This document shows, piece by piece, positions 22,689-50,574 of a stretch of DNA of 64,000 bases (positions are counted from its first letter, which is position 1; each line of letters opens with the position of its first letter). The notes under the pieces are model-generated. The model worked only from the letters and a program-made list of their open reading frames with translations. It ran no database searches and was not told the DNA's origin. This DNA is from an uncultured Nitrososphaeraceae archaeon (GTDB lineage Archaea; Thermoproteota; Nitrososphaeria; Nitrososphaerales; Nitrososphaeraceae). Both the position numbers and the translations under genes were made by a program. Location: positions 1 through 64,000 of the forward strand of contig CAWGVG010000021.1 of assembly GCA_963825865.1 (NCBI GenBank). The letters run 5' to 3'.

Positions 22689-22740
22689 TTTTCCATCTAC
22701 TATTACTATCATACGTTAGTAATGATCTTTATCATTGACA

Positions 22741-30632: not shown

Positions 30633-31150
30633 TTAAAAAATATATTTATCCAGGCTACCATTAGTGCCAAATACAGCTATTGCTCTTGCATCTTGTTTTC
30701 TTTTACTCTTCCCTTGTCTTCCTTTATCCAGGTCAGTTGCCTGTCTTATCATCTCCAAAGTATTGACATCATGGGTATGTGATAGATATATAGTATATAT
30801 CAATGCTGTATCCTTTCCTTCAGTCTTTCTTACTATTCTGCCTATTCGTTGTACTATTTGATTCATGTTGGATGTTGTTGCTAATATTATTGCTACCCGA
30901 ACTTCTGGTACGTCATATCCTATTTCTAGCGTATGTACTGAAAGTAATGGAAAAAATTCTTTTCCCCATTCTGATAATATTTTTTGTCTTTCTTTTGATT
31001 TTAATTTGCTATCAATCATCATAGACTCTATTCCTTTATTTTGTAACATTTCTTTTAGTTTTTGAATGGATTCTATAGTTTCACTAAAGACCATAATCCT
31101 TTCAGAAGGATGTTTTGTTGCTATGATACCTACTGCTGCCTAATAGTTTA
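30633..31150 (-). pseudogene. 3' half of an XPB/Rad25-like helicase gene interrupted by the integrated element
   Basis: KLL-AAVGIIATKHPSERIMVFSETIES...GYDVPE...QRIGR; starts at the direct repeat and continues the 49183-50158 fragment. Confidence 0.88.
31130..31150 (+). repeat. Left attachment site (direct repeat)
   Basis: CTACTGCTGCCTAATAGTTTA versus CTATTGCTGC-TAATAGTTTA at 49183-49202 (one substitution, one extra C). Confidence 0.85.
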
Positions 31151-31163
31151 CATATAATACTAA

Positions 31164-31195
31164 CTTATATAAGTACGCATCGTATAGTTATGCGT
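31164..31195 (+). promoter_or_regulatory. Putative integrase promoter (TATA-like box) followed by an inverted repeat
   Basis: CTTATATAAG at 31164-31173, then ACGCAT-N9-ATGCGT at 31175-31195. Confidence 0.4.
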
Positions 31196-31293
31196 GAGAA
31201 ATAACAGTAGTAATAATCCCGCTGCCTAAATCAAAATCAAAAGAAGCCATTATTGATGCTACTTCTAACTATATCCTTGATACTGATGATGAT

Positions 31294-32616
31294 ATGAGAA
31301 AGAAGATAGAAAACATTACAGAAGGACTTTCCGCTAACTGCTTTAACATTCTATATAATAGGATACTACCAGCATCAAGGGATAATACCCTAACGATTTG
31401 CAATTATATTTCTTCTTTGAGATCAGAAATTAATTTAGTTGACCATTATAGAAAAGACGTAATAATTTTGCTAAGTAACTTCTCAGTTTATCATAAAGGT
31501 AAATCATTCGAATCTATAACAAGACATGATATACTCGCATTCCTAGATAGTTATAGAAAGCCAGAAGAATCAGATCCATTTCACAAGTGGATGGGGACAT
31601 ACAACACATACAGAATGCACTTGATGAAATTTTACAAGTGGTTATATTACCCTGATATAGAACAAAACAAAAGACCGAAACCATCAGTTATTGAAAACAT
31701 CCCTCAGTTAAAAAGAAAAGAAAAATCAATTTACAAGCCAACTGATTTATGGAAACAGGAAGACGATTTATTATTTCTGAAATACTGTCCTTCAAAGAGA
31801 ATCAAGTGCTACCACACGGTTTCAAGAGATACCAGTTGCAGGCCGCATGAGATATTGAAGTTAAGGATAAAAGATATTGTGTTCAAATCTGTGGGAAACA
31901 GGCAATATGCCGAAGTTCTTGTGAATGGCAAGACTGGTAGCAGACATATACCGTTGATTGATTCAATTCCCTTTGTAAAGGATTATCTGGATCACGAGCA
32001 TCCGCTGAGCGGAAATCCAAATTCAATATTTATCTGTGGAAACGGCAAGAGTCTAGGTAAGAGCATAGGTATCATAAGCCTGTATCGAATATACGATAAA
32101 TACAAGCAAGAACACTTTCCGAAACTATTGGAGAGTCCTAACGTTCCGCCTGAAGACAAGCAAAAAATTAAAGAATTGCTCAAGAAGCCCTGGAATCCAT
32201 ACATCAGAAGGCATTCAGCATTGACAGACAAATCTAAGATATTGAAGGAACATGTATTAAGACAGTATGCAGGATGGTCTATAGGTTCGCAAATGCCTCA
32301 AAAATATCTCCACTATTTTGGAAATGAATCAAACGAAAGTATCTTAGAAGCATATGGAATAGTTACTAAGGACAAACAATTTGCAGATGCATTGAGGCCA
32401 AAACAGTGTCCCAACTGCAATGAGCCAAACAAACCAGATAGCAAGTTCTGTGCTAAATGTAGGATGGTATTAACATATGACGCTTACAATGAAACGATCG
32501 AACAGAAAGAGCAGAACGACAAGCAGATTGAGACCTTAACAAAGAAGCAGGAACAGTTCGAGCAGTTAATTCAATCACTTATAGATTCAGGACAGTTGAC
32601 TCCGGGTATTAAGTAG
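31294..32616 (+). CDS. Tyrosine recombinase/integrase with C-terminal Zn ribbon, intact
   Basis: SCRPHEILKL, VNGKTG, PYIRRHSAL, YAGWS, QKYLHY; CPNC...CAKC tail; ~140 bp from the left att. Confidence 0.92.
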   Translation: MRKKIENITEGLSANCFNILYNRILPASRDNTLTICNYISSLRSEINLVDHYRKDVIILLSNFSVYHKGKSFESITRHDILAFLDSYRKPEESDPFHKWMGTYNTYRMHLMKFYKWLYYPDIEQNKRPKPSVIENIPQLKRKEKSIYKPTDLWKQEDDLLFLKYCPSKRIKCYHTVSRDTSCRPHEILKLRIKDIVFKSVGNRQYAEVLVNGKTGSRHIPLIDSIPFVKDYLDHEHPLSGNPNSIFICGNGKSLGKSIGIISLYRIYDKYKQEHFPKLLESPNVPPEDKQKIKELLKKPWNPYIRRHSALTDKSKILKEHVLRQYAGWSIGSQMPQKYLHYFGNESNESILEAYGIVTKDKQFADALRPKQCPNCNEPNKPDSKFCAKCRMVLTYDAYNETIEQKEQNDKQIETLTKKQEQFEQLIQSLIDSGQLTPGIK

Positions 32617-33020
32617 TTGAGCAATGCATTTGCATAATATGATCAAAGTATGTTATACCCCCTTGAGTGTATACGGCTCTTTTTTCCTCTTCTGTTGACT
32701 TTGTATCACGAGCGAGATCAGTAGCAATTTTCTTAATCAGATCATCAGTAACATCTTCTTTATTTATGAATGCACTACCAGATTGTATTTCCTTAATGCC
32801 ATATTTTAAGACTGGTCTATAGGTATTGAGAAATTCTTTTTCATATCCTTTCATCTGATGAAGACCAGCCTCAATGGAATATTTTCTATGTTCGAAATAA
32901 ATATCTGAGCTAGTAATTGCATTATCGATTTTTTTAAAAGATTCTTGGTCGTTAAGAACTTGATCTATTATCTGCTTTACTCTTGATTTGTCATATACGA
33001 TTTTCTTCCCCTTGTTTCAT
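32609..33020 (-). CDS. Hypothetical protein (frameshifted; includes ORF 32609-32854)
   Basis: ATG at 33020 directly after the 33023-33427 stop; coding-like sequence continues into ORF 32609-32854. Confidence 0.4.
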
Positions 33021-33022
33021 TG

Positions 33023-33427
33023 TTAGGGTTTGACTGAGAGATAGGTCTTCCCCTTGGATTGGAAAAGTTCTTTTTTGCTGCGTTTCAAGATAAGCCGTCT
33101 AGATATTGAAGATAGCACATCAGATAACTCAGGATTTCCTATATTCTTTTCTTCATTTGCTAGTACAGCCCTAAAATCACGTGGACGTGTAGGGAGCTTC
33201 CGATTATTAGTTAAAATATTGATAGAGATAGTATTGTCAGTTACAGCTGTTTTAGATTGTTTAAATGGCTTTGAATCATGAACGGCACATTCCTCAGGAC
33301 TTTCTCTTGCGATCGTTCTTTTCATGATAGTCAATGTACCCCAAATAATGCCATCAGTGATAGTTGACATTTGTTCTGCATTGACAGTTATCTTTGATTC
33401 CTCATCAGTCAAATCAAAACTAGCCAA
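33023..33427 (-). CDS. Hypothetical protein, possible DNA-binding regulator divergent from the replication operon
   Basis: 134-aa ORF; basic C-terminus resembling a wHTH wing. Confidence 0.45.
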   Translation of the reverse strand: MASFDLTDEESKITVNAEQMSTITDGIIWGTLTIMKRTIARESPEECAVHDSKPFKQSKTAVTDNTISINILTNNRKLPTRPRDFRAVLANEEKNIGNPELSDVLSSISRRLILKRSKKELFQSKGKTYLSVKP

Positions 33428-33596
33428 TAATAACCATATATTTTATACCATAAAAAGCGTTTGTGAACTCTCGTAACACAATTACTATACGACATCAAGT
33501 ATATGAACGTCTAAAACGTCACGGTGTGTTCGGAGAATCTTTTAGCAAGTTGATAACCAGACTTTTGGACGAACTAGAAAGAGGGAGCAACACAGA

Positions 33597-33818
33597 TTGA
33601 CGTATAACAGCTTGGATTTTCTTAGCAGATACTGCAGAAATAACAAGCATAACGAATGTTCTGGCATATGGCATGGATTAGGTATAGAAGTTTCCTGTTA
33701 TTGTAACTGTCATAGTAAAAAAGATAAGCAGGCGTTAGATTCGGTAGAGGGACCAGCAGCTAACGCCTTTCATCATATTCAGTTGTCTTCTTCTAAAGAG
33801 GTTAATCAAAGAAGATGA
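33597..33818 (+). CDS. Small Cys/His-rich putative Zn-binding protein, first gene of the replication operon
   Basis: YC....H..C...........CYCNCH; its TGA overlaps the ATG at 33815 (ATGA). Confidence 0.55.
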   Translation: MTYNSLDFLSRYCRNNKHNECSGIWHGLGIEVSCYCNCHSKKDKQALDSVEGPAANAFHHIQLSSSKEVNQRR

Positions 33819-34700
33819 CAGTGAACTGATATAGCCTCTAAAGATAACAATAAACCTTTCGATAATTCTATTACTGTATATAAGAATAGTTCTACCGAAG
33901 AACTGACATATAATGATAATAATTATGATAGCATCCGGCCCGAACTATTAACAAAATACCTTGGGGCAGGTTTCAAGCTTGTACCTGTTGGGAAGGACTC
34001 GAAAACTCCTGCTGTTGATTCTACTAACGAGATTTACAATAATACTAATTACTGGACAGAAGAAAAGCTGGTAAAAGATTATTCCAGATTTTCAAATGTG
34101 GCTACTACGTTTGGTATAACTCATGTTAAGGACGGACATGGAAAAGAAGAAGTCTTGTATCTGCATTGTTTGGACATCGATAGCGATAATGTCTTAAGAC
34201 TCACATCTGATTCTGCTGGAAGAATTACAATCAAAAACATTTGTGACCAAGACGAAGAAAGATTGTAGATACCATGTATACTGGTTAAGTCATACACAGA
34301 ACCCTTCTATTGGAGTAAATAAGTGTAAGCGTGATTATGAATTTGAAATAAAAACTGATAATAGTTTGGGACTCTGCAGTTTGCCTCCTAGCCAACATAG
34401 AGACGATCCATATTTCAGATATCAATGTGTGGGACGAGAAATAAGATCGCTCTTGATGACGGACTTTATGATAAATTATTACAACTACTTTCAAAAGACT
34501 GTTTGATAAGTAATGATGACGATGATAATAATGACGAAGGGAAAAATACAAGAGAAGATGCCAGCAGAGCAAATAGAAGATCTAGATTTGAAACTGCTTA
34601 CAAGGATTTAACAGATACAGCTGTAGAGCAAGTAATAGCCCACGTCAAAGATAGTCTATCAGAAAGGATATAGAGATCCCATAGTTTTTGGCCTTTCTGG
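33815..34700 (+). CDS. Bifunctional primase-polymerase (Prim-Pol, AEP superfamily) domain, N-terminal part of the replicase
   Basis: Manual translation YLGAGFKLVPVGKDSKTP...NVATTFG...LHCLDIDS (DxD)...TKTKKDC.YHVYW...LPPSQH; GAGGT upstream of ATG 33815; several indels. Confidence 0.75.
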
Positions 34701-34704
34701 TTTA

Positions 34705-36360
34705 TTGTTCAAAGGTAACGTAGCATTACCAAGTGCCAAAAATCTGATAGGTAGATTATGTGATTATGCTCAGGATGAAGAGAAAATCAATAGACTTGAA
34801 GTATTAAACAACACATATCTGAAAGGTTTAAACGGAAATGAAATAAAGGGAGTGACGCAACTTTTAGAGACTTTAACAACAATCCATGGTGGAAACAAAG
34901 GTTCCGCAACAAAAATTTTAAAAAATATTTGCCAGGTTTTGGATGAGGAGGAAGACGGGTCTAGCAAAAATGGTGCTACCCAGCTATTGATACAGTTAGC
35001 AAAGGATAACACTTTGCTATTTTTCAAGGACCAGTATGATATAACATATGCAAAGGTCAAGGTAGCACAGCATAGTGAGATAATAGCACTCGGAAGCGGT
35101 AAATTTGAATACTTTGTTAGCAAGATATATTACGACTATACCCGAGGGGAAGTAGTAGGCCAAGAATCATTAAACAACGCCATCCGTGTTCTAGTGGCAC
35201 AAACTCTGTTTGACAGTACAACGACTAGGACATTAAATTTAAGGGTTGCATGGGGAGAACAAAAAGGTAGAGGAAATCTATTATGACTTGGCAGACTCGG
35301 AACTGGCGATGCATCAAGATAACTCAACAACGATGGCACATAGTAGCACAAGACTCTCCTGTGTTATTTACCAGGTTCAATCAAAAGGCACAGGTTGAAC
35401 CAGATAGAAATTATTCAGATGATATATTTGACAAGTTTCTTGATCTAATGCATATTAATGACCAAGGACATAGATTATTGACCAAAGTCTGGATTGTATC
35501 GTTGCTGATACCGGATGTTCCACATCCCATTAATATTACATTTGGTGAAAAAGGTAGTTCAAAATCTACATTTTGTAGGTTTGTAAAGAGGCTTATTGAT
35601 CCAGACAAGATAGAACTACTAACCATTCCAAAGGACAAGTCAGAATTTGTACAGCAACTCTATCATAATTATCTTGCCGTGTATGATAACGTAAAAAAGT
35701 TGCCATATTGGTTTTCTGATGAAGCTTGCAAAGCTGTCACAGGAGTTGGTAACAGCAAAAGAAGTTTGTATACTAATGACGAAGACATAATTTACAACTA
35801 CAAGCGCTGTCTGATGATAAATGGCATCAACAACAGTCTAACTGAGCCTGATGCTTTAGACCGCAGCATATTAACAGAATTTGATAGAATATTCCTGAAC
35901 AAAGAAGGGAAGAAGCAAAGGTAGAAGCAGAGTTTGAGGAAATGCGAGCCTAAACTTCTAGGATATATTTTAGATATTTTAGTCAAGGCATTGCAAATCA
36001 AATCAACTATAGAATTAATCAATCTTCCTAGGATGGCTGATTTTGCAGTTTGGGGTGAAGCCATTGCAAGAGCCATGGGATATAAGCCGATGGAATTTGT
36101 TAATGCATACAACGAAAATATAGGAAGACAAAATGTAGAAGCAATTGAATCCAATCTATTAGCTCAGGCAATAGATAAGTTTGTTGACAGTTGGTATAAA
36201 GAAGAGCAAAAGGTAACCTTTGGGAAGGTTCAACTAAAGAAGCATTAGAACAATTAAACAAAATCTCCCAGGCATACAAAATAGATACCACCAGTAAAGC
36301 ATGGCCCAAAGCTGGCCAACTCTCTGACAAGAAGGCTAAGACCTATACTATCAAACCTAC
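34705..36360 (+). CDS. Primase C-terminal region plus SF3-like helicase/ATPase domain of the replicase (frameshifted)
   Basis: DEEKINRL primase C-terminal-like segment; Walker A GEKGSSKST, VYDN, motif C INGIN, DALDRSI arginine finger, LPRMADFAVWGEAI. Confidence 0.7.
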
Positions 36361-36460
36361 GTGAGGGTCTTGGAATTAATGTTGTTATCGGTAGACAAAC
36401 CACTAGTAACGGTACTGACAGTAAAAACAAAGAAGAATACGTCTACCATAAGAATAGAGA

Positions 36461-36650
36461 AAATATCTCCACTACCTCCACCATCTCCACCAGACCAAAA
36501 TCACGCACAAAATCAAGGCAAAAGCGGTGGAGATATTTTAGATAGTGGAGATAATATCTCCACCCAACAGCAAATACCTCCACCAGAAAATGGCCAAAAT
36601 CACGCTCAAAAAACAGAAAGTGGAGGTAGTGGACATAGTGGAGGTATTAT
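36461..36650. repeat. Iteron-like array of CTCCAC/GTGGAG repeats in both orientations (putative origin, within the coding linker)
   Basis: About 10 copies counted by eye; triplets at the two ends form an inverted repeat. Confidence 0.6.
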
Positions 36651-36699
36651 TCCGACCTTAAAAGAGGAGAAAGTAGCAATACGGAAACATATGTTACAA

Positions 36700-38692
36700 A
36701 CAATCTTTAAAAAGATATGTTGCATTTGACTTCGAATGGTCATTCCTCGGAAGAATCTTCCTCTTCTACATGCAATTTTAGGACAGTCAGCCTTTGTGGA
36801 CAGTAATGGAAACTATAAGGTAATACATATATCAGATTATTCTGATAAAATCTGCTAATTCAGAAGCACGAACTTTTATTAAATATTAATCAAAGGAGCT
36901 GTTAAAGTATGACTATTCAATAGGATGGTATTCAACTGGTGTTGCTAAATACCACGAAGACACACAAGAATACCTTGATGGAGTTGACTCTGATCTTGTC
37001 GTATTACACAATAGGTGTATTGCAAATGGTATAGATTCTATAGTCAATTTTAACAGCGGGTACTCCATATATTAGAAGCCATCACATATCGACTTCACAA
37101 TGTTTTTAGCAAACCAATGGTGCAAACTATTATTTTCAAGAACGCGTATCGAATCTAAGACTAGATGAAGTATCAAAGGCAATATTATCAGATAATCTGA
37201 GGGTCTAGGAGTAATGAACAGGAAAATACAGAGGACTAACAGGCAAAGACATTCAATCCTTTCAGTTGAAGAGCAGAAGAAGTATGTTCTACGGGATGCA
37301 GGATGGTAATGCGACTTTCAAAGCATAACAATAGTGAAGTTCTTGATGCTATGAAGGCATATCAGAGATAACTGGACTTGAGTTTTGAAAGAGTATGTAG
37401 GACTGGAATATCAACGTGGTGGGCAGCTATTTTTGATAAGATGGTACATGATGGAGAATGTGAAGAACCACCTGTGGTTGCTTCAATTGAGAGAATCAAG
37501 AACAAAAATCTGAAATACAATATATTGGGGGAATTGTCCTTCAACCAAAAAAGGGACTTTATCATAACTTGATTGTTGTAGACGTTACTAGTTTATACCC
37601 TACAATGGCAATACTTCACAACATATCATTTGATACAGTTAACTGTGGATGCTGTGAAGATAATCTTGCAATGCAGAATAGACAAAGGAATTACAAAGGA
37701 CTGCAAAATAGAAAAAGAGTATTGGGTATGCAAACAAAAAGAAGGTTCATTTCCAAAGAAGTTAAAAGTATTCAGAGAAGAGAGACTAAAACAAAAGAAT
37801 CTAGGAAATCAAGTTAAAACAGCTAGCATTAAAGACTCTAATCAATGGTGGATATGGTGTCTTTGGAAGTCGATATTTCAAGTATTATGGCCCAAGGGTG
37901 GCAGAACTAATCACAGCTTATGGTAGATTCACTCTATTAAGAATGCAAGAAATTGCCAAAAGTATGGGATTTGAGATTGTCTACGGTGACACTGACTCTT
38001 TATTCCTTTACAACCCATCTTATGGCAGTAGTGGAGCCGTTCCAAGCCGTGATATTATTTCAAGATTCCAAGAAGAATGTGGTAAGCAATTAGGTGTTGA
38101 AGCCGAGCATGCCAAAACATACCAAACTGCAGTAATTTCTGATAAGAAAAAACATTATGTTGGTTGGACTGTCATAGAAGGAAAAGAACCAGACATTGTA
38201 GGAATGGAAGGAGATAAGAATGATAGGCCTAAATGGATTAACACTGTTTTTAGACAGACAGTACGTGACATTGTTAATAACGCAGATCCTATAGTTAATC
38301 TACGGAAAGCAATTTCGGGTTTAGAATCAGGTCATGTAGATCCAGAATTACTAAAAAGATTTAATAGGCTATCCAAAAATCCAGAAGAATATGAGAACGA
38401 AAATGATCGTAAACGCAAGATAGGGTTAGCAATTGGTGCGAGAAAAGGAGATATTATCGAGTATTTCGAATCAGACAACAATAAAGAGGGATATTCTCTA
38501 AATCCGCAAGACATCAGTGTTAAGAAATACAAGATTATGCTGTGGAAAGCAGTCAAGGACATTCTGGAAATTGCAGGTTATGATACTGCAGCATTAGAAC
38601 ATGAATTAGTTTATACAAACATGACCACACAGCAAAGCCTCCCAGTGGCGTGGTCGGGTTACGCTAATTTGCATACAGGAGGTGAGATATAA
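36700..38692 (+). CDS. polB: Family B DNA polymerase (exonuclease plus polymerase), multiply frameshifted
   Basis: ExoI YVAFDFEWS, ExoII GWYS...DSDL, ExoIII KYVLRDA, motif A VVDVTSLYPT, motif B KTLINGGYGVFG, motif C YGDTDS, KKHY. Confidence 0.85.
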
Positions 38693-38693
38693 T

Positions 38694-39049
38694 TTGGCAT
38701 CAGAAAGTCAAGTATTAAGTCCTAAAGCCAAGGAAAATTTGCAGAGAAATGCAGAGTGTAAGACAAAAGGACAACAAGTTTATAAAAATAGAGCCAAGCG
38801 AGAAGAGAATTTTGCAATTCAATCCAGAGAAAATCGAGCAAGTAGAAGCAGAATTTAACGGAAAGAAGAGTCAAAGATATAGATACACAGTTACAGACCC
38901 AGCAGTGGAGCAATCAAGAAAAGTATCTAGAAGTAGGAAAACGAACTTCTGAAGACATTGACGCATATTTAAGTGAAGGAAAAACATTACTTAAAATTCA
39001 AAGGTTTGGCTTAGGCAAGGATACACGATACCACGTTACACCTGCCTAA
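38694..39049 (+). CDS. Putative OB-fold single-stranded DNA-binding protein (indels)
   Basis: GGAGGTGA Shine-Dalgarno before TTG 38694; KFIKIEPSEKRILQF...LLKIQRFGLGKDTRYHVTPA resembles phage gp32-type SSB C-termini. Confidence 0.55.
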
Positions 39050-39366
39050 AGTAACCAAACCTTCTCTATTATTTTTTGTTAGAAATATAACATTGTAATA
39101 TATATAAAGTTAAAAGACTAGGTTTGTACTAATATACTACCATATATTATGTACCTGCGATAGTCAAAATGGTACTTTGGTTTTATGAAAGAAAAATAAA
39201 TAAACCTTCAATAGTATAGCATTTAAAAAAGTTTTTTCTTTTGAGATAAAGTCATGTAATAACAACGAATCCCATGATCAGTCTCTATTTTTTCTTCAGA
39301 TCATATTGACGTATTGTAGTCATATTCCATTAAAAAGGTATATGCAACCTACAAGGACTAGTTTTT

Positions 39367-40110
39367 ATGCCATCAACCATCACTTTTTACGGTGTAGTCC
39401 ATGAGATAGGTGGAAACAAATTTCTTGTGGAAGACAAAGGAACTAAGATTTTCTTGAATTTTGGAATGCAGATGGGTAAGGTTAACCAATATTTTACAGA
39501 ATTTCTGAATCCTCGTACATGTAATGGAATGGGCGATCTGTTTGCATTTGGATTATTACCAAAACTCAAAGGACTCTACAGAAAGGATTATGCCAAACAT
39601 ACAGATTTTGGTGGCAGTGAAGATAATGAAATAGATGCTATAGTCTTAACCCATGCACACGTAGATCATGGAGCTTATATTCACTATCTGAGACCGAGCA
39701 TTCCTATTTACTGTTCAGAAGCAACCATGTTGATAATGCAAGCATTTCAAGACACTGGATCTTTTGAAAAAGTATGTTACCTTTAAGGAAAACTTCATGG
39801 TTAGATTAAACCAGATAGGCGATCTTTCGAATATAAAAGGCAAGGAAATGAGTTATCCAAGAAAAGTTCGAACCTTTCAGGACTAGAAGAAGTTTAATGT
39901 AGATTCTATCGAAGTTGAAGTATTTCCAGTAGACCTTTTACCTTCCCGGTGCTTGTGGTTTCGTATTGCATACTTCAACTGGGTCTATAGGTTATACCGG
40001 AGATATTCGTTTTCATGGTAGAAGAAGATCAGACACACAAAAGTTTGTAGAAAGGTGCGGAAATTCAGATCTTAATATTTTATTGTGCGAGGGAACTCGC
40101 ATCCTGCCAT
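39367..40110 (+). pseudogene. Metallo-beta-lactamase-fold ribonuclease (RNase J/beta-CASP-like), truncated
   Basis: FYGVVHEIGGNK, LTHAHVDH, YTGDIRFHG, LLCEGTR; ends after the MBL domain. Confidence 0.75.
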
Positions 40111-40235
40111 AAAAAGTTGCATTTGGTTGATGGAATTGCATTGAGGATTTGTAACTGTAGCAAAGTTGAAAATGATAAGATCCATAGAGTTGATGACAAA
40201 AGTCAAACCTTTTGGACTTTTATAATGGATACATA

Positions 40236-41330
40236 TTAAGTAGCATTATTCTTTTCTAAGAACTTTAAGGTCTCCTGTAGGGTCGGAGGTTCAGAAAATG
40301 GACTTGTAATATATAAATATGCGTATGCATTTGAAAATACTAACTGTTCTTCCTCTCTAAGATCAATGATTTTGCTCACAATATTTGCTGCATCCCAAGC
40401 ATCTCCTGCACCAGTCAACGTATGAGGATTCTTTACCTTAAATGAATGAGCAAATACGGATCTTTTACCATCTGACCAGACTGCGCCATTTTTAATATGC
40501 ACATTTGTATTAATATTTATTTTATTGGCCAGCACTTTTGCTAATTCTTTTAGCCTATTAACTGCTCTAATTTTGCCATTATCTTCACTGTATTCAAAAG
40601 AATTATCGCTATCATATATAATATCAGATAAAGTATCAGATTTCAATCCTAAAGCAGTTAATATTGAGTTACACTCATTTTCATTTATACTAAGAGTATT
40701 TCTCTTACCAGAAAATTGTGGCAAATCATCGATAAACTCTTTTTTTCTACTTTCTATGTCGGCAGGATCTAATAAGTGAAGTGCATGATAAGAGTTTTTG
40801 AATGCATACTCTACAAGTTCAGTTCCTTTTAAATTACTTCCCCAATTGACTACCATTACACCATCAGCATCCTGCAATATCCTTCTAGTATCCTCGTTAT
40901 CTATACGATCAGGTCCAAAAAAGGCAATATCGCCAACATCGTTTAGCATTATATTTACTTTTGAATGGAGATCGCCTTGAAACTCCATTACTACAGTGTG
41001 GCCATGTTTTCCATGGGAAACTCTGAGTTCTACTCTGTCACCAAATTGAGAGAATTGCTGTTTTAATATATTTGAACCAATTTCGTTAGCAATGGTAAAG
41101 AGCACCACTTTTACTCCCAGTCTTGCAAGACAATACGCAATATTCACAGCATTTCCACCTTTAACATCTGAAATAGAGACATTGCGAATACTTCCTCCCC
41201 CAAATTTTTCTTTTTCAGAAATAATTTCAAACAATTCCTTAGTCGATTGCAACCTAACAAAGCGATCAAGGAAGAAATCGGGCATCACCACGATAGAATA
41301 ATTTTCTAATTCAAAGTCTTTATCAATCAT
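40236..41330 (-). CDS. PfkB/ribokinase-family carbohydrate kinase
   Basis: VVMPDFFLDR, KGGNAVNIAYCLARLG, INENE, TLTGAGDAWDAA. Confidence 0.88.
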   Translation of the reverse strand: MIDKDFELENYSIVVMPDFFLDRFVRLQSTKELFEIISEKEKFGGGSIRNVSISDVKGGNAVNIAYCLARLGVKVVLFTIANEIGSNILKQQFSQFGDRVELRVSHGKHGHTVVMEFQGDLHSKVNIMLNDVGDIAFFGPDRIDNEDTRRILQDADGVMVVNWGSNLKGTELVEYAFKNSYHALHLLDPADIESRKKEFIDDLPQFSGKRNTLSINENECNSILTALGLKSDTLSDIIYDSDNSFEYSEDNGKIRAVNRLKELAKVLANKININTNVHIKNGAVWSDGKRSVFAHSFKVKNPHTLTGAGDAWDAANIVSKIIDLREEEQLVFSNAYAYLYITSPFSEPPTLQETLKFLEKNNAT

Positions 41331-41531
41331 TTGTATGATAAATATAGCTATATTCAAGATGTTAATATGAATATATCTATATTTCAAAGTCTGATGTAAT
41401 GAGGGAAGAAGGTGTAAGGTTACTTGCATTCTTATCTCATAGATTAAACTTTAATATAAAATCCTCTTAACTATTCTACCATCCTATTTATTGGTTAGTG
41501 TCAAATATGTATATTATCACAGATATATGAT

Positions 41532-42711
41532 ATGCTGTAGGTATCTAATCGTAGTTTGTATCTTATTCTCATGTTATTTCCTGTTTGTAACTTTTTCGTT
41601 TGGTGAATCAATAAACGAATTTAATACTCCAACATGAGTAGCATAGAATCAAATAAAGGAAGATACTTACAAGGCGAAGCTGTAAATATTAATGGGACTC
41701 TATGGAATGACAAAGTAAATAAAACTAACACTTGTGTTCCACCTAGGACTAACCTAACATTACAGGTAAAACCGATTAACCATAACTTAACCCTTGAAGT
41801 GGATACATCAATTCATCTCAATGGCTGTTCTTTTAGTCACACTTTCGTAAATATATGGGATGTAGGTAAATATGAAATCATTTCTTCAATCGAAAATAAA
41901 ACTCTAGGCCGGACAACTATTGAAATAATCCCTATTTATTGGACACCTGTTCTTCTGGTTTTTAGATGATAAGTTTATGTTTTTTTAGTGCCTTGATGTT
42001 GTCAATTTATTTTTATGCCAGAAAACATACACACATTTATCCGAAATCCAAGTGCTTGGTTATCTCTTTTTCAAGAGGATGGTTTTACGTATTATGGAAA
42101 AACGATCTAAGAACGTAACATTCAAGAAAAAGATATGAGTTTTTATGTTTATATAGACATATTGCGCTTTGTTTGTATTTCAGGAATGGTTATCTTTTTT
42201 ATAATTTCTTTCTTCTCACTTACTTCAGAAATAGGTGGCAATGGACCCATTGGTTTAGTATTGAGGCATATGTCTAACTCTTCCAAAAGCAGTAATACGG
42301 ACATTATGGAAGAGCAATCTACCCGGCAAGTTTGGGTTTTCAACGTAGGAGGAACTTCAACTAGTAAGTCCTATATCTGGTCTTAATATCCCTATTTTTG
42401 TCATATTGGTCGGCGTAGTGGGTGGTTACATTAGATATCTTTACAAAGCAGCAACAAAACGAGATGTGTATGTAGCAACGGCACACAAAGATAACCAGGA
42501 CTCCATAAGCCCTGGAAAATTTGGACATGAAACATTTGAAGAGATTTCGGAAATTATACTTGCTGGCTTACTAGCGATAATTGTCTGGTTTATAATTTCA
42601 CAGGGAACTATAAATACTAATATATATACGCTGGGAGCAGTAAGTCTCACTGTAGGATTAATTACAAAAGAAATTGTCCAAATTCTTAAAAATTTTTCGA
42701 AGAAATTTTAG
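41532..42711 (+). CDS. Membrane protein with N-terminal extracellular beta-rich domain (split into ORFs 41634, 42135, 42406)
   Basis: Collinear fragments; hydrophobic segments DILRFVCISG, GVVGGYIRYLY, LTVGLITKEI. Confidence 0.5.
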
Positions 42712-43205
42712 CGGGAGTGAGTCAAAAGTAACCTAAGATTATGGTCCCAAGTGGATGTAAATCAAATTTGACATGATTTTCAGGTTCGTCTTACTTCGAT
42801 TTCTATTACACAGGTTCTTAAGTTCTTTAAAAATTGTATATAATACCACTCATATTGCTTTATACTAAGCTCGTGAAATCCTTGCCAAAGCCTTCCTTTT
42901 CTGCCCTCTTAGATAGGTTAATGACGTTTTCTTTTGTTGCCTGTTCTCCTATTTGTGGTAAGGTTATTCCAACTTTCACACGTTGATGCTTTTATTATCA
43001 CTCCTACTAATATTATTTATCATCGTCGTTGTTGCTGGTCATTATTTGATTTCTTCCAAATACCAGAATAGCATATTTGATAGTGCCAGTATGAAGACTT
43101 TCTTTACTAGCCTTGACATACCTAAAGCCAGTAGAGTAATTGTGTTTGGGACATCAGGTATACAAATGAAGAAATATATTTGAAGCTAGTAGTAGAAACA
43201 TTATT

Positions 43206-43656
43206 GTGAAAGAAATGATATCCAAGATTCTTGTTGCCATGGATGGTTCAGAGTCATCGGTAAGGGCTTATGAATACGCTTCTTTTTTAGCCAAAAAATG
43301 TGATGCCACTCTACTTATTGTAAACATAAATGATACATTTGAAAGAATATCACATAATATTAAAGAATTTAGAGAAATTGCTAAGCAGATAGAAGAAGGA
43401 GGTGGAACAGCAGTAACTATACAAGTTCTTGAAGATTATCAGTCTCGTGCCAAAGATTCTGGGATAAAAAGATGTAAAAACAATAAGACGTGAAGGAAAT
43501 GCAGTCGTAGAAATATTGCTCATAGCAGATGAAGAGAAGGCGGATACTATAGTAATTGGCAGTACAGGTATGAATGCAGTTAAAGAATTTCCGCTAGGTG
43601 GTGTATCTCATAAAGTCATTCATCAGGCAAAATGCCCTGTTACTGTTGTTAGGTAA
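43206..43656 (+). CDS. Universal stress protein (UspA family), indel near 43470
   Basis: KILVAMDGSESSVRA ... EGNAVVEIL..A.EEKADTIVIGSTG ... LGGVSHKVIHQAKCPVTVVR. Confidence 0.88.
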
Positions 43657-44283
43657 AAGAAGAGATGAGACCTCCAATATAGCGCAGTCAAAAAGTCTGT
43701 GAATCTTCCCATAATTGATATCAAATTATGTAGTTTATGCTTTGTTGCACGATTCAGAAATGTCGCTTTTATTAGTTGATTTCATTATATGTCATACTAG
43801 CACATATGCGAAATGGACCTATCCAGTTGGAGATTTCAGACATAATTGAGACTGGGGAATAATTTGATTATGCAATTTTCAAGTTAGTTTTGTTGTTGTT
43901 GTTGATTAGTTCCTAACATGTGTTTGATTGCTTTTGGATGTTCTTTGCGAGTCTTACAATTGTAATAAACAATGATTTGATAGAGCAGTAGTCCTGATAG
44001 CAGGACTAGTCAAGCTGCTTTCTGGTACCCTCTTATTGACAAAGGATTCTACTGGAACATCTTTGATGTGTTCTATTAACGGCTCTATTGATATGCCTCT
44101 CCAAGAGTAAATTATCTGTCCTAATTCAGACTCATAGGGCTCATTTTTGATATCTTGCCAGAGTTCAGTTCCTAATGGAGACCCTTCAGAAATCCTTTCT
44201 GGGTTTGGCTATGACTAGATAAAATGCCATATGAATCTCTGCAACATCATTACATAAAAAGATGGTTTGCGTTAAGAGTAGAT

Positions 44284-44568
44284 AAAATACCTCCACTATC
44301 TCCACTACCTCCACCAAAGCCAAACTCGTGCTCAAATTTAGTCCAAAAACGGTGGAGATATTCTTAGTTGCTGTATACAATATCTCCACCTTTCAACAAA
44401 TACCTCCACCTAATAGTGCAGAAAATAATGTGCCAGCCATTGACGGTGGAGATATTGCAGCCATTGGTGGACATATGCCTTTACGATACCTCCACTAAAA
44501 GAAGTAAAATCATATTCCTTTTTCAAAATAAGCAAAAGTGGAGATGGTGGAGATAGTGGACATATTTT
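44284..44568. repeat. Second iteron-like CTCCAC/GTGGAG array
   Basis: About 12 copies counted by eye; same triplet-ended palindromic layout as 36461-36650. Confidence 0.6.
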
Positions 44569-45121
44569 CGGTATTGTTGTGTAGTATATAAAATAAATAA
44601 AAAATCATTCAACATATTAAAAAATTAATGTCATCAGTATATTACTTCCCTATTGAGTTCAATTTGAAATAAATTGGTAGCAGGTGATATCAGATGAAGA
44701 CAGGTGGAAACAAGGAGGGAGCAGGGGTAACAAAATTGGTAACAGGTGGTAGGAGCCCTTATCATTCTTTTTTATTGTGTATTTATTAAACAAGTTAGAT
44801 GGTATTAACAAGACAGCAAAGGGAAAGACTTGTTCTCGATCTCTACAGTCAAGGTAAAAACACGCGCGAGATAGCAGAAGAAGCCAGAATGTCATTTAGT
44901 GCTATAGGCGCCATTCTGAAAAAAGCAGAGGAAGAAAAGGAGGCACAGGGAGAGCAAGAACAAAAGCTGTCTCTAGCCTCTCAAGCTTACAAACTATTTT
45001 CAGAACCTAAAAAACTCTGGCACAAGTAGCTATTGCATTGAACCTAAGGGAGCCTGAGGTAACCAAATTTTACATGGAGTATTGTAAGCTAACTCAACTT
45101 GACAGCTTTTGTCGGATTTAT

Positions 45122-46119
45122 TGCTCTGTTGCATAATTCATTAGGATTTTAGGTTATGCAAACCGTTAGTAGGTTATTCGATTGAACATGTTATACAGAG
45201 CTGCCTTTAGGAGGATCTCTTTTACCATGTGAGGAAACTTTCTAGCTGTTACATGTTCACCAAATGTTCTTTTAATGGAAGAGAATGCTGTTTCTGCTAT
45301 CCACCTGTACCCATAGCTCACGCTACGCTTCCATTTTTTGAGGTTTGCTTGTTGTCTTACTACAGACATATTCCTAGCATAACAGTTAGTTGACTTGACC
45401 TTGGAATTACTTCTTGTCTTTATACCAGGCTTAATGTGGTTCTTTGATAGGTATCTAAAATTCTTATTGCTGTTGTACATACCATCTGCTAATATACCCT
45501 TCAGATTATTATTTTCAGAAGCATTGTCTACTAACTTCTTTAGCATCTTACCATCATGTACCTCTTCACTTGTTACCTCCAGAGATACAATTCTTTTCTT
45601 CTCGATATCAACTGCTATGTGTATCTTTAGATATCCTTTTCTGACATGCCATTTGTGGTGCATCCATTCCCCTCGATTAGCTACCTTAATGCCGGTGCTG
45701 TCTAAAGCAATGACAATATCATTTCCTAATTTTTCATCGATTTTAATCTCTAGCCTGTTTATACGTCTATTAATGGTACTATAATGTGGTGTGTTTGATA
45801 CTTCTTTACTTGCATGAGCTATGACTACACCCTGTGTTTGTCTATATGGTAGATGGAAATATGCTCTCATGTAACCTAGAAGCTGAATAAATGAATTTGG
45901 GTAGCAGTAGGGCTCACCAACCTTACCAAGGTTCATTTGACATAATTCATGATCCCATCCATCAAGTACATCAAAATCCAAGAGTACTTGACCACGCCTA
46001 ACTAGTGATTCATTATAGCAAGGCCAGTCAACCATACCAGAATAATTAATACTAGCAAGCTAAATGGTGAGTGGTCAAATAAGTATCACTTACAAGATAA
46101 TTAATCATGCAACAAAGCA
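45122..46119 (-). mobile_element. IS5 family insertion sequence, copy 1
   Basis: TIR TGCTCTGTTGCATAATT / AATCATGCAACAAAGCA; 8-bp TSD GGATTTAT (45114-45121 and 46120-46127). Confidence 0.92.
45166..46035 (-). CDS. IS5 family transposase (IS903-like)
   Basis: W..YNESLVRRG, PHYSTINRR, ALDSTGIK, YLKIHIAVD, LADGMY, YGYRWIAETAFS. Confidence 0.92.
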   Translation of the reverse strand: MVDWPCYNESLVRRGQVLLDFDVLDGWDHELCQMNLGKVGEPYCYPNSFIQLLGYMRAYFHLPYRQTQGVVIAHASKEVSNTPHYSTINRRINRLEIKIDEKLGNDIVIALDSTGIKVANRGEWMHHKWHVRKGYLKIHIAVDIEKKRIVSLEVTSEEVHDGKMLKKLVDNASENNNLKGILADGMYNSNKNFRYLSKNHIKPGIKTRSNSKVKSTNCYARNMSVVRQQANLKKWKRSVSYGYRWIAETAFSSIKRTFGEHVTARKFPHMVKEILLKAALYNMFNRITY

Positions 46120-47504
46120 GGATTTATGATCAAATTAAGGATGACATTTACCCTTTTGTGAATTTGTACATTTTGTCTAAGGTGGCACGTATAGATACAC
46201 AACAGGTGGTCAGACTTCTTACAATCGCTAATAATGATCTACCATCAGTACAATGGAGATGTGAAAAACTCAAAAGAGAAGAAGCGTCTCTAAAAGCTGG
46301 TAATCAGAATTCTGCTATGATTTTGCAGGAATTAAGCGACCAGATATCAGATTTACGAAATACATCAGACTCCTGTCGTTTATCATTAGAAGAAGAAAAA
46401 AGACAAATGGCTGAGCTGCGCCAACAAAAGATGAACCAAGAAGCACTTGTAAATGACTTTCAAAACGGTAATGAAGAATTTATCAAAATCATAAAAACTG
46501 TTGAAGAAAAAGTGGTTAGTATTTTGTCAAATGCAAAAGTGCTTCTAAGATGTGCACTTTTGTCTATAACTGAATCAATAACAAATAACCCAGAAAGATT
46601 TAGGTTGATTTTTTACAATATGCCTTCAATAATAGATTGTTACGACAGTAATGGCCAGGATTACGCTACATCCTATATGTATGGAGGACAAATACGACAA
46701 TCACAACAGTACCCATCACCGAATTATAATACTGAAGCTAATGTAGCTATGATAGTAGGTGAAGCTGAAAAACTTTACAATAAGATAGTAAAAGATTGTA
46801 TAAGCAAAGTTGTTGCTGATTATGCTGTTAACAAATCATCATTACCATTGTTACCACCACCCAATGAAGAACAAAAGTCACCTAACATCAACTAGAAGAA
46901 CACACATTCATTCGATACCAAATGAGGACGAAGTTAATTAAAGAGTGATAATAGCGTCATTTTTATTATTGGTCTGATTAATCCCCAACTATGCAAATAT
47001 GAAAAACGTGCAAAGATGTTTAATTACAAATATATAGGTAAGGTGATTGGTAAAAGAGAGAACAAGCCTTTTCTCCCCAGATTTCTTACAGAAAAAGCTA
47101 TCAGAACAGCCTTGCAGAATCTGTACGTATCCTTTGTGAAATGTACATAAATAATAAATGAAAATGCCAGAACATTGCTTGAAAAAGACTTAAGTAATAT
47201 TAGCATGTATCTTGCAAAAGGAAACGAGCGTGTAAGGGCGTCTTTCATAGCCGCAGTCTCATGGTTAGCTCTTGGTAGCAAATTTGCCTTGGCATATGAG
47301 ATCTTCGCTGAACAGATTCTCGAATCGGCTCGTTGCGCTGCTCGCTTCATCATGAGTATTAGGAGATTTTCCTCTCCTACGGCTACACTTGATGGAATTA
47401 TCTTCGCAAGATCTGATCCATACTACATGTATATATATTTGTCAAGTTGCTAAATGTCTCGATAGGTAATATTTTTCATGTCGTTATAGCAGATACATTA
47501 CAAC

Positions 47505-48911
47505 ATGCTAAATTCAGAAGAGAGCACGAATTCATCCTCATTGTCACCTACGTCTACATCACCACCTTCACGACCACCAATAATCTCAGCAATTTCCTCA
47601 TTAAAATTTCCATTTAAGCTTACAAAGGATCAGCTTGAAGCGGTTGATGCATGGATAACAAATGGCTATAGAGGTTCGATAATATACAGTACTGGCACGG
47701 GCAAAACAGAAATAGCATTTGAATGCGCAAAAAGAGCGTGTGAAGCAATAGAACATAAAGAAGATAATAAATCGTCATTTAATATCCTCTTTCTTGTACC
47801 ACGAATTGTACTATTACAGCAGAATATAGACAGGCTAATAAGATATGGTATTGCTCAAGAGAGAATAGGAACATATTTCGGAGAGCGCAAGGAAGTACGA
47901 GAAATAACGATAAGCACGTACCAGAGTGTAATTAGCAATCTTGATCTTTTTAATAATTCTAACATGGTCATATTTGATGAAGTGCATTTAGTAAGTGACA
48001 CTGCTACAACTTTGAGAAAGGTGTTTGATTTTGTAACTGCTGCTGATCCTAAAAAACCATTATTAGGTCTAACCGCAACAATAGATGAACAAGATCCTAG
48101 ATACAACACAATACTGTCATTGCTGCCGCCAGTCAAAAAATATATGATAAGAGATGCTGTGAAAGATAAGCGATTAGCAAGGCCTGTTGTTATTCCAATA
48201 AAAGTTAATCTAACACATAATGAACAAAAGATCTATAATGAATGCTCTACTAAAATCAGAAACATCTCCGGCTATCTTAATACCTCTGACCCCAAATCAA
48301 TATCTTCTCTATTAAGGAGAGGAGGAGGACGAACAGCTGGACTAGCGAGAGCATGGTTTGCAAATGTTAAAGAGAGAAAGAATTTAATTAACTGTGCCAA
48401 AAATAAACTGTCAGCAGCAGTAGATATCATAGCAACAAAACATCGTTCTGAAAGGATTATGGTGTTTAGTGAAACTATAGAATCAATCCAAAAATTAAAG
48501 GAAATGTTACAAAGTAAAGGAATAGAATCCATGCTAATTGATAGCAAACTAAAATCAAAGGAAAGACAAAAAATACTATCAGCATGGGGAAAAGAATTTT
48601 TTCCATTACTTTCAGTACATACGCTAGAAATAGGATATGACGTACCTGAAGTTAGAGTGGGAATAATATTAGCAACGACATCTAATATGAACCAAATAGT
48701 ACAAAGAATAGGTAGAACAATAAGAAAGACTGAAGCGAAAGATACAGCATTGATATACACTATATATCTATCAGAGACTCGTGATGCCAGCACTCTGAAG
48801 ATGGTAAGACAAGCAACAGATGTAGGAGTCGAAAATAAGGATAAGAAAAAGCCAAGAGACAACAGAAGCTTATCCTCTAATAACGATAATCTGGATAGAT
48901 ATATCATTTAA
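47505..48911 (+). CDS. Intact XPB/Rad25-like SF2 helicase carried by the element; close homologue of the interrupted target gene
   Basis: LTKDQ, STGTGKT, DEVH, GLTAT, GYDVPE, QRIGR; aligns end to end with the two halves at 49183-50158 and 30633-31150. Confidence 0.9.
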   Translation: MLNSEESTNSSSLSPTSTSPPSRPPIISAISSLKFPFKLTKDQLEAVDAWITNGYRGSIIYSTGTGKTEIAFECAKRACEAIEHKEDNKSSFNILFLVPRIVLLQQNIDRLIRYGIAQERIGTYFGERKEVREITISTYQSVISNLDLFNNSNMVIFDEVHLVSDTATTLRKVFDFVTAADPKKPLLGLTATIDEQDPRYNTILSLLPPVKKYMIRDAVKDKRLARPVVIPIKVNLTHNEQKIYNECSTKIRNISGYLNTSDPKSISSLLRRGGGRTAGLARAWFANVKERKNLINCAKNKLSAAVDIIATKHRSERIMVFSETIESIQKLKEMLQSKGIESMLIDSKLKSKERQKILSAWGKEFFPLLSVHTLEIGYDVPEVRVGIILATTSNMNQIVQRIGRTIRKTEAKDTALIYTIYLSETRDASTLKMVRQATDVGVENKDKKKPRDNRSLSSNNDNLDRYII

Positions 48912-48968
48912 TTAGTTACATTGATATGGCTTCCATGTATACGAGAAACTATAGGCATATGATGTGAT

Positions 48969-49100
48969 ATGATGATATCCATATTACTGATCCTTGTGCT
49001 GATACTGGGTGGGCTTGGAGGAATAGCAGGCCATAGCAGATCTGGTATTACAGATGGTGGCATGGGTTACAACGTGACACGCAGCACTTATTGTATGTAA
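48969..49100 (+). CDS. Small putative membrane/secreted peptide (43 aa)
   Basis: MMISILLILVLILGGLGGIAGHSRSGITDGGMGYNVTRSTYCM*. Confidence 0.3.
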   Translation: MMISILLILVLILGGLGGIAGHSRSGITDGGMGYNVTRSTYCM

Positions 49101-49174
49101 GATGGTTAATCTTATCATTGATACAGCAGTATCATTTATTGATTAAATATAGTATTGATAGCAAGTTATTTTTC

Positions 49175-50158
49175 TCAACAGTCTATTGCTGCTAATAGTT
49201 TATTTTCAGCACAATTGATCAAATTCTTTCTATTTTTAACATTTGCAAACCATGCTCTAACTAATCCAGCTGTATGTCCTCCTTTTCTTAATAGAGAAGA
49301 TAGTGATTTGGGATCAGAGGTATTAAGGAATTCAGAAATGTTTCTGATTTTAGCAGAGCATTCATCATAGATTTTTTTCTCATTATGTGTCAGATTAACT
49401 TTTATTGGAATAACAACAGGCTGTGCTAATCTTTTATCTTTCACAGCATCTTTTATCATATATTTTTTGACTGGCGGCAGCAATGACAGTATTGTATTGT
49501 ATTTAGGATCTTGTTCATCTATTGTTGCGGTTAGGCCTAATAATAATGGCTTCTTTTGGCGATGCGTTGTTGCTGCTATTACAGCATCAAATATTTTTCT
49601 CAAAGTTGTAGCGGTATCGCTTATTAAATGTACCTCGTCGAATACTATCATGTTAGAATGATAAATGAGATTAAGGTCGTTAATTACACTCTGGTACGTG
49701 CTTATTGTTATTTCACGCATTTCTTTGCGCTCTCCAAAATATGCTCCTATACGATATTGGGAAATGCCATATTTTATTAGCCTGTTAATATTCTGCTCTA
49801 CTAGAATAATGCGCGGTACTAGAAAGAGTATATTGAAAGAGTTGTTGTTGATGGCATCATCATTACTATTATGATGGAATAAAATATTATTGTCTTTTGG
49901 ATGTACTATTGCTTCAGCCGACGCTCTTTTTGCACATTCAAATGCTATTTCTGTTTTGCCCGTGCCAGTACTATATATTATCGAACCTTTATAGCCATTT
50001 GATACCCAGGCATCAACCGCTTCAAGCTGATCCTTTGTAAGTTTAAATGGAAATTTAAGTGAGGAAATAGCTGATGATGAGGATGATACTATTGACGTAG
50101 ATTCTTCTGGTGCTGATGGTGTCGCTGATTTTTCTGCAGTTGTTTTTGAATTCAGCAT
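49175..50158 (-). pseudogene. 5' half of the interrupted XPB/Rad25-like helicase gene
   Basis: Motifs I-III present; similarity to the intact copy ends at ...NCAENKLLAA, exactly at the repeat. Confidence 0.88.
49183..49202 (+). repeat. Right attachment site (direct repeat)
   Basis: CTATTGCTGCTAATAGTTTA; contains the dyad CTATT-GCTGCT-AATAG. Confidence 0.85.
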
Positions 50159-50574
50159 ATTGTAATACACTAAACACCATAGACATGTCCAATTGAAAAA
50201 TGTTGTCTATAAAAATACATAATCTCTAACAATTACACAATCATTCAATGCATTCGCTTAACTATGTAATTTTTTCAATAACTTTGCGTTTAATGGAGAC
50301 TAGACGCTATTGTATATATTCTAAGCCCCGATATTTAGAGTTTCTTTATCAATTCGTCTTTCTTTAGGCGGTCGTTCTTCTATGAGAGCACTCTTTTCAA
50401 TATGCCTAAATGTATTAGTAGCAATTAACTCAACTCTGACAACTTGTCCATTAACTAAAGTCTATGTTTTCTGAAAATACAACTATTGCTAAATATCAAA
50501 GGTTCTTACATATTAGTATATTTGTAATTAAACATCTTTGCACGTTTTTCATATTTGCATTACATAGTTGTTGA

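Follow-up and report, generated by a model that had tools for sequence, protein, structure and literature searches.

A ~1,600-residue primase-helicase-polymerase replicase, probably encoded by one gene, in an integrative element of a Nitrososphaeraceae archaeon

Every replication fork depends on a primase, a helicase, and a polymerase, and to our knowledge it is rare for all three activities to reside in one chain. The question raised here is whether a run of short open reading frames (ORFs) in the genome of an uncultured Nitrososphaeraceae archaeon (GenBank assembly GCA_963825865.1, contig CAWGVG010000021.1) encodes such a chain. The DNA analyzed, referred to below as the window, was the stretch of 64,000 nucleotides (nt) from position 1 of that contig. 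An initial annotation, made from the letters of the window, had proposed that positions 33815 to 38692 encode a single replicase of ~1,600 amino acids (aa), with a primase-polymerase (Prim-Pol), a superfamily 3 (SF3)-like helicase, and a proofreading family B DNA polymerase (PolB), on an integrative element. It had recommended a frameshift-aware alignment, a look for full-length homologs of the same architecture, and a PolB phylogeny. Taken together, the sequence comparisons reported here point to one real, probably functional single-chain replicase gene of ~1,600 aa in a plasmid-like integrative element of a Nitrososphaeraceae-type archaeon, a reading to which a probability of roughly 0.8 is given. 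The gene and its predicted parts were as follows.

33815..38692, + strand: replicase gene, whole, ~1,620 codons with ~26 frameshifts in this assembly
33945..34445, + strand: Prim-Pol (archaeo-eukaryotic primase, AEP) domain, with DIDSD within 34167-34187, YHVYW within 34261-34287, and PPSQH within 34339-34401
34647..34900, + strand: helical PriCT-1-like region, with a weak PriCT_1 match (E 0.045; 3/40 homologs) and model helices 230-338
34975..36150, + strand, boundaries approximate: predicted D5-like SF3 helicase (collar, ATPase core, helical C-terminal domain)
35538-35573, 35670-35693, 35811-35837, and 35844-35870, + strand: stretches holding the helicase Walker A, Walker B, motif C Asn, and Arg finger, respectively
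36399..36700, + strand: Pro/Gly/Ser/Gln-rich linker with an internal ~33-aa repeat, collinear with the linker of intact fused homologs
36716..37450, + strand: 3'-5' exonuclease domain, with ExoI FDFEW, ExoII DSDL, and ExoIII YVLRDA
37450..38692, + strand: polymerase domain, with motif A DVTSLYPT, motif B KTLINGGYG, motif C YGDTDS, and KKHY; PF00136 at 50.2 and 61.4 bits

Between 33815 and 38692, the + strand had no long ORF but at least 13 shorter frame pieces (25 to 295 aa), which succeeded one another across all three frames. Compared with Pfam, 2 of the 13 raw pieces were recognized, both as PolB (PF00136). The ATG at 33815 overlapped the stop codon (TGA) of a 73-aa Cys-rich ORF lying upstream (ATGA) and was followed by a frame change ≤10 bases later, and the stop codon at 38690-38692 closed a single open frame formed by the final 295 codons, in agreement with the limits annotated initially. 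Also as annotated, the domains were collinear on the + strand, in the order Prim-Pol, PriCT-like helices, D5-like SF3 helicase, flexible linker, and PolB with proofreading exonuclease. The ExoI frame (YVAFDFEWS, 36716-36742) lay downstream of a stop at 36674-36676, with no ATG, GTG, or TTG between stop and motif, and was overlapped at +1 by the linker frame (36340-36726); therefore, a single insertion or deletion (indel) joins both. The proposal of a startless ExoI frame fused through an indel thus held at this junction, but it understated the damage, since ~26 indels were spread across the gene.

Frameshift-aware alignment of positions 33888-38739 to P0035, an intact homolog of 1,601 aa, covered 1,574 codons, of which 67% were identical, and called for 28 frameshifts; a match of this extent is far beyond chance. 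In-frame stops in this read-through were confined to one cluster of three (37206-37215). The last two (3') of the 28 frameshifts were reference artifacts, because the open C-terminal frame of the window matched the C termini of P0001 and P0004; one further frameshift, besides the 28 aligned, lay just past the ATG. A conserved C-terminal tail (AW-G-ANLQ-GGE-like; window 38590-38689) closed the fused proteins P0001, P0003, P0004, and P0008 and may be a docking peptide, for example, for a sliding clamp.

Uninterrupted ORFs of the same architecture were found elsewhere, in accordance with the single ~1,600-aa chain proposed. When the C-terminal 295 aa were compared with longer proteins, 309 matches at E ≤ 0.001 were obtained among 7,998 candidates; among the best 120 of these 309, at least 38 homologs were 1,300 aa or longer, and at least 17 had both PF09250 (Prim-Pol) and PF00136 in the precomputed Pfam column. 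Some of the listed homologs were named by their source as proteins of Nitrososphaera or of Nitrososphaeraceae metagenome-assembled genomes. The N-terminal 147-aa piece gave 26 matches, among them three full-length proteins whose N terminus was of the type seen here (P0035, 1,601 aa; P0024, 1,586 aa; P0043, 1,612 aa). With P0020 as the query, a representative search recovered 23,074 proteins (E ≤ 0.001), mainly PolBs, and the representatives returned were mostly helicase-only.

The assembly that holds the window comprised 4.98 Mb in 62 contigs and was 81.8% complete. The rpoB gene of this genome (G000:C44:24966-27303) was spread over three frames, with 13 frameshifts and one stop in 2.9 kb when aligned to a relative at 93% identity. 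In the relatives, none of 12 rpoB matches had a stop inside, and in 10 of 12 the match lay in a single frame of ≥1,114 aa (in the remaining two, the open frames were shorter, 922 and 716 aa). Paralogous replicase copies of the same genome contained 13 (C15) and 9 (C7) frameshifts, with no in-frame stops in either. The window read-through retained 244 of the 248 columns that were invariant in 17 intact homologs, which falls inside the leave-one-out range of those proteins (0.908-0.992), and all catalytic motifs were intact. Contigs from four soil/rhizosphere runs, 85 to 100% like the window, showed one-base differences at 36313, 37357, 37382, and 37664, each adjoining a predicted frameshift site and in the frame-restoring direction. 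One 151-nt public-run piece (97% identical) covered the sites near 35263 and 35301 with two gaps, and some public-run contigs were identical to the window over 151 to 261 nt. As no piece spans the region, these contigs give neither the true sequence of this copy nor its habitat. The breaks in the replicase gene are assembly indel noise of the same kind as in rpoB and not decay, because rpoB is comparably broken, 244 of 248 residues are kept, and stops number at most three. Hence, consecutive short ORFs are no sign of a pseudogene in this assembly and need to be checked before they are read as one.

Two other explanations for the breaks were rejected: an alternative genetic code, since the breaks are frame changes with no single recurring stop codon, and programmed frameshifting, since rpoB has the same pattern. 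Indel noise was also seen elsewhere in the window, at 21545-22715, 23111-23834, and 24424-24982: MetK was split between two frames, and an overlapping unannotated frame adjoined both a Rad51-like gene and a dUTPase-like gene.

Relatives were searched with P0035 in 121 genomes of the family, three unpublished ones among them, on which no conclusion depends. Matches at E ≤ 1e-20 were obtained in 112 of the 121, most of them to chromosomal PolB1 at 30 to 32% identity. Helicase and PolB lay together in a single open frame of ≥1,300 aa in at least six other genomes among the matches listed (G002, G017, G021, G073, G077, and G079). Forms of 1,380 to 1,400 aa were without Prim-Pol and were followed by a ~160-aa ORF and a PriX-domain protein, with an integrase upstream. 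The initial annotation had expected homologs to appear as separate ORFs if the fusion was wrong; the same architecture was found as single ORFs, and a split two-gene form, described below, was also found in relatives. In a quick maximum-likelihood tree of 88 PolB cores, which gave long-branch warnings and was made without bootstrap, 48 mobile-element PolBs formed one clade (Shimodaira-Hasegawa-like approximate likelihood ratio test [SH-aLRT], 100) apart from 16 B1 and 24 B3-like rows. The window PolB did not group with chromosomal B1 and, judged from its sequence, belongs to this mobile-element clade, distinct from cellular B1/B3. PolBs of the same clade were observed directly after MCM genes (L030, G035:C1:2460000-2479000; L031, G046:C1:1116000-1135000), and two other same-clade fusions (P0091 and P0082) combined PolB with a PriX-domain region (1,129 aa) and with a Dam methyltransferase (832 aa).

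The N-terminal part was examined by family models and by a structural model of a homolog. PF09250 (cutoff, 22.8 bits) scored 19.1 bits in P0035, 27.6 in P0132, which has the same N-terminal type, and 83.5 in P0004, which has the other type; the window frame pieces alone had no PF09250 match. Residues D95, D97, E152, and H169 were invariant across both N-terminal types, and the AEP fold, as seen in the model of homolog P0125, was present together with the catalytic acidic and His motifs of pRN1 ORF904-like Prim-Pol. The window-type Prim-Pol also occurred in 753- to 764-aa frames with a bona fide DUF5906 (D5-like) helicase (G043:C61:4600-6387 and G003:C14:73244-75022); this type of primase therefore has two distinct helicase partners.

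In the helicase part, G561, E562, K567, T569, D608, N656, and R667 were invariant in 17 homologs and all present in the window; these correspond to Walker A (G561/E562/K567/T569), Walker B (D608), the motif C Asn (N656), and the Arg finger (R667). The P4/D5 models PF05272 and PF19263, run over the whole genome, made no contact with the helicase domain or its genomic paralogs, and Pfam matches among 40 homologs were weak (RNA_helicase, 3/40; AAA_5, 4/40; PriCT_1, 3/40). By hhalign, helicase probabilities were at most 18% against pRN1 ORF904, P4 alpha, phage 1706 gp55, and a DUF5906 alignment; the 16-sequence DUF5906 alignment gave 13% over 158 columns and P4 alpha 5.8% over 114 columns. P-loop controls outside SF3 gave P-values similar to those of SF3 templates, but over 17 to 45 columns only. 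Relatives of the helicase were always tied to a primase. For instance, the 12-kb Methanothrix plasmid pH6Ac encodes a 1,124-aa relative (33% identity, 1e-56) that also matched Prim-Pol weakly, the relatives on Streptomyces plasmids lie downstream of a Prim-Pol gene, and gp37 of Microbacterium phage Zeta1847 has a Toprim domain. An AlphaFold2 model of the 801-aa homolog P0125, whose helicase part was 67% identical to that of P0035, was of high confidence (mean predicted local distance difference test [pLDDT] score, 85) and contained the collar, SF3 ATPase, and C-terminal domain fold. In a VIA-align wide structure search, it matched pRN1 ORF904 and D5-type SF3 primase-helicases. The helicase part is, on this model, a D5-like SF3 helicase, and the annotated pairing of Prim-Pol with an SF3-like helicase is upheld, with weak sequence evidence for the helicase. 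The linker that follows is ~100 aa long and predicted to be flexible; in the window (36457-36640), it showed a ~33-aa internal duplication (direct repeats 91 to 99 nt apart) and complementary stretches.

The C-terminal part matched PF00136 (cutoff, 23 bits) both in the two window pieces listed above and in P0035 (107.5 bits). The best solved relative of P0035 was Sulfolobus Dpo1 (1s5j; 8.1e-42), followed by Thermococcales PolB (~1e-26). The best NCBIfam model, the PolB1-type NF004417, scored 209.9 bits versus a cutoff of 780 and aligned only from its position 304 on, the usual N-terminal domain of archaeal PolBs being unmatched. The protein-primed PolB model PF03175 gave 20.3 bits in P0035, under its cutoff of 25.8. 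The motifs YGDTDS, KKHY, and VGMEG.K.DRP reported initially were found within 37976-38005, 38138-38164, and 38195-38233 (as VGMEGDKNDRP), and Exo I to III, Pol motifs A, B, and C, and KxY were all present in the window. From its sequence, the polymerase is assigned to family B, RNA/DNA-primed kind, with canonical Exo and Pol motifs, as the initial annotation had it.

The replicase gene was contained in an element of ~18 kb (31128-49202), for which the following features were found.

30636..31139, - strand: SF2 (superfamily 2) helicase gene, 3' half (Helicase_C), 168 aa; Pfam Helicase_C 3e-19; aligns to residues 309-472 of a full-length paralog
31128..31150, no strand: left direct repeat copy (attachment core), from the target gene, ~22 nt
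31294..32616, + strand: divergent tyrosine-recombinase-like integrase, intact 440-aa ORF with a C-terminal zinc ribbon, 150 nt from the left end
32609..33427, - strand: two small ORFs, function undefined by family; no Pfam family, no paralog in the genome
33597..33818, + strand: 73-aa Cys-rich ORF, stop overlapping the replicase ATG; on C3, a homolog immediately precedes a Prim-Pol-like match
38700..39115, + strand: small conserved downstream ORF, frameshifted here; homologous to ~160-aa ORFs after fusions in L032, L035, L036, and L037 and to four paralogous loci
39116..49180, no strand: cargo part of the element (PfkB-like kinase, Usp fragment, DDE transposase, SF2 helicase paralog)
40236-41429, - strand: PfkB-like kinase
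45166-46035, - strand: DDE transposase, an insertion sequence (IS) inside the element
47505-48911, + strand: full-length paralog of the disrupted SF2 helicase
49181..49202, no strand: right direct repeat copy, ~22 nt
49178..50206, - strand: SF2 helicase gene, 5' part (ResIII), 343 aa; ResIII 6.8e-20; aligns to residues 33-312 of the paralog

The two SF2 helicase parts, which overlap by ~12 nt, formed one gene in 11 of 11 relatives' loci, and the direct repeat copies shared an 11-nt exact core (~23 nt with one indel and two mismatches). With the gene split here, repeats at both junctions, and the gene contiguous in relatives, the ~18 kb must have been inserted. The integrase scored 23.4 bits with Phage_int_SAM_1 (cutoff, 22.3) and 13.9 bits (E 0.048) with PF00589 (cutoff, 27.1), and a pattern RRHS...GW...YLHY was readable in it, which may be the tyrosine-recombinase motif. 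In another genome, an integrase-like ORF adjoining a helicase-PolB fusion (G002:C49) was 61.5% identical to this integrase. The integrase, the direct repeats, and the split target gene bear out the integrative element of the initial annotation. Similarity among the paralogous replicase copies reached ~39115 and no further; the replicase module, from the integrase to ~39115, may be the core and the remainder cargo or a second, nested element. The element fits the thaumarchaeal "cryptic integrated element" class as outlined in the accessible text of PMC6563490.

Mobile DNA was abundant around the element. The genome held at least three fused replicase copies (C21, C15, and C7) and many PolB fragments, and the family of the element's integrase was greatly expanded in it, with tblastn matches on >20 contigs, one copy being in the window (5954-7145). 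Five transposase/integrase-core genes (DDE_Tnp_1, IS240-like, and rve) were spread over the 64 kb (7710-8771, 10307-10930, 45169-46059, 54214-55047, and 60938-61651) and adjoined cobalamin-synthesis and translation genes. The SF2 helicase paralog near the right end of the element was 77 to 79% identical (aa) to the split gene, lay in the opposite orientation, and could be a replacement copy for it.

Several observations weigh against one functional, single-chain gene. The helicase domain was recognized by none of Pfam, NCBIfam, PHROGs, and PDB sequence search, and its fold was modeled in the homolog P0125 instead of in the sequence encoded here. For this copy, the corrected sequence is a reconstruction, as the best of 10 public runs contained at most 0.10 of the sampled words. 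Indel density was also uneven: the neighboring integrase (1.3 kb), PfkB gene, and helicase paralog were unbroken, which excludes a uniform ~5 errors/kb. Indeed, ~26 frameshifts in 4.9 kb beside these intact genes favor a dead pseudogene with real indels in a decaying integrated element, as do the many fragmentary PolB and integrase copies in the genome and the IS inside the element. Such decay is nevertheless very unlikely, given the comparable frameshift density in rpoB, an essential gene, the single stop cluster against 28 frameshifts (and none in the two paralogs), and the near-complete retention of invariant residues and catalytic motifs.

The true sequence of this copy might, on the other hand, contain two adjacent, translationally coupled genes, one for Prim-Pol-helicase and one for PolB. 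A further point against fusion is the split form in the complete genome G035 (L029), in which the end of an 850-aa helicase-like ORF overlaps the start of a 679-aa PolB; stand-alone PolBs of 650 to 770 aa are common, and the fused state needs five changes on the PolB tree, at least four of them forced by well-supported branches. However, the linker aligned residue by residue with that of fused homologs, no start codon lay ahead of ExoI, and a 1-nt shift alone joins both frames. Moreover, the window PolB sits in a clade whose other 13 to 14 members are all fused (SH-aLRT, 96 and 99). Two genes are therefore considered very unlikely in this copy. That the element is a provirus and not plasmid-like could be argued from the many family-less ORFs in 39-49 kb and from the archaeal viruses encoding PolB mentioned in the accessible text of PMC6563490. 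Yet neither virion (capsid, portal, or terminase) nor conjugation families were among the Pfam matches of the 71 window ORFs scanned (≥90 aa), and IMG/VR contained no close relative: P0035 found none, and with alignment A3, the best 80 of 210 stretches shared only 22 to 30% identity over the polymerase core. A provirus is thus highly improbable, and a single-chain replicase on a plasmid-like integrative element is preferred.

For that replicase, replication could proceed as follows. The integrase would excise the ~18-kb element as a circle, and the helicase part would assemble into a ring, like D5-type SF3 helicases, and open the origin. The N-terminal Prim-Pol would then lay down primers, which the tethered PolB, with its exonuclease, would extend by way of the flexible ~100-aa linker. 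The element would in this manner supply its own priming, unwinding, and accurate synthesis, and the host might need to provide little more than clamp, ligase, and nucleotides. Should it be active, the chain would offer a compact model of the way in which priming, unwinding, and synthesis are coupled, and it would be a candidate tool for amplifying DNA with one enzyme, without primers and with proofreading.

Among the Nitrososphaeraceae, a family of major soil nitrifiers, the fusion is common. A broader reading is offered tentatively, at somewhat less than even odds: that soil ammonia-oxidizing archaea carry integrative plasmids of an abundant, as yet undescribed lineage, which encode a minimal autonomous replisome in a single protein of ~1,600 aa, a D5-like hexamer with six primases and six proofreading polymerases, and that an old PolB clade outside B1/B3 was repeatedly fused to and split from SF3/MCM helicases and Prim-Pol/PriX primases. 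If so, the lineage would be a natural experiment in modular replisome assembly. Fused, split, MCM-linked, and PriX-linked states occur side by side, which bears on the exchange of replication modules between mobile elements and cells.

Among known systems, archaeal plasmids and thaumarchaeal cryptic integrated elements as a rule have Prim-Pol/SF3 helicase replicases that lack PolB, according to the accessible text of PMC6563490. No description of an archaeal or thaumarchaeal Prim-Pol/SF3 helicase/PolB fusion was found, subscription journals and supplementary tables (the PMC6563490 elements and the PMC7544198 PolB groups) lying outside the search, and the accessible text of PMC5862659 does not mention PolB, family B, Thaumarchaeota, or Nitrososphaera. 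The protein described here differs from the pRN1 ORF904 type in that a complete proofreading PolB is added via the ~100-aa linker and the helicase is unrecognized by P4/D5 Pfam models. The primase-helicases Vaccinia D5, SaPI5, and PriRep1 share 8 to 11% sequence identity with it and are without an attached polymerase. Like casposons and pipolins, the element is integrated and carries its own PolB; in contrast to them, no Cas1 family was among the Pfam matches of the 71 window ORFs, the PolB is of the RNA/DNA-primed kind and accompanied by a primase, and integration is of the tyrosine-recombinase-like type with direct repeats. Oxyrrhis polinton-like viruses, as far as the accessible text of PMC12721341 describes them, encode a ~1,500-aa SF1 (superfamily 1) helicase-pPolB (protein-primed PolB) fusion present in several ORFs in a long-read assembly. 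This is likewise a large helicase-PolB chain in fragments, but it has an SF1 helicase and a protein-primed PolB, lacks a primase, and belongs to a eukaryotic virus.

The nearest precedent, which was missing from the systems listed in the initial annotation, is the HelPrimPolB group (Lactococcus phage 1706 gp55 and relatives), for which the accessible texts of PMC4889955 and PMC7544198 (Kazlauskas et al., 2016 and 2020) describe SF3 helicase alongside an AEP primase and a PolB in one polypeptide, with the parts named in the order helicase, primase, PolB and with divergent motif C and KxY. Both chains join the same three activities. The archaeal order, however, is primase, helicase, PolB; motif C and KxY are the canonical YGDTDS and KKHY; and hhalign of the archaeal family against gp55 matched the polymerase core only (88% probability, 173 columns). 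Whereas gp55 belongs to a phage of bacteria, the present protein is encoded by an integrated archaeal element. Thus, the published three-activity case, within the limits of those texts, comes from phages in which the domains are ordered differently and the polymerase is divergent, and here a pRN1-type Prim-Pol, a predicted D5-type helicase, and a canonical proofreading PolB are combined.

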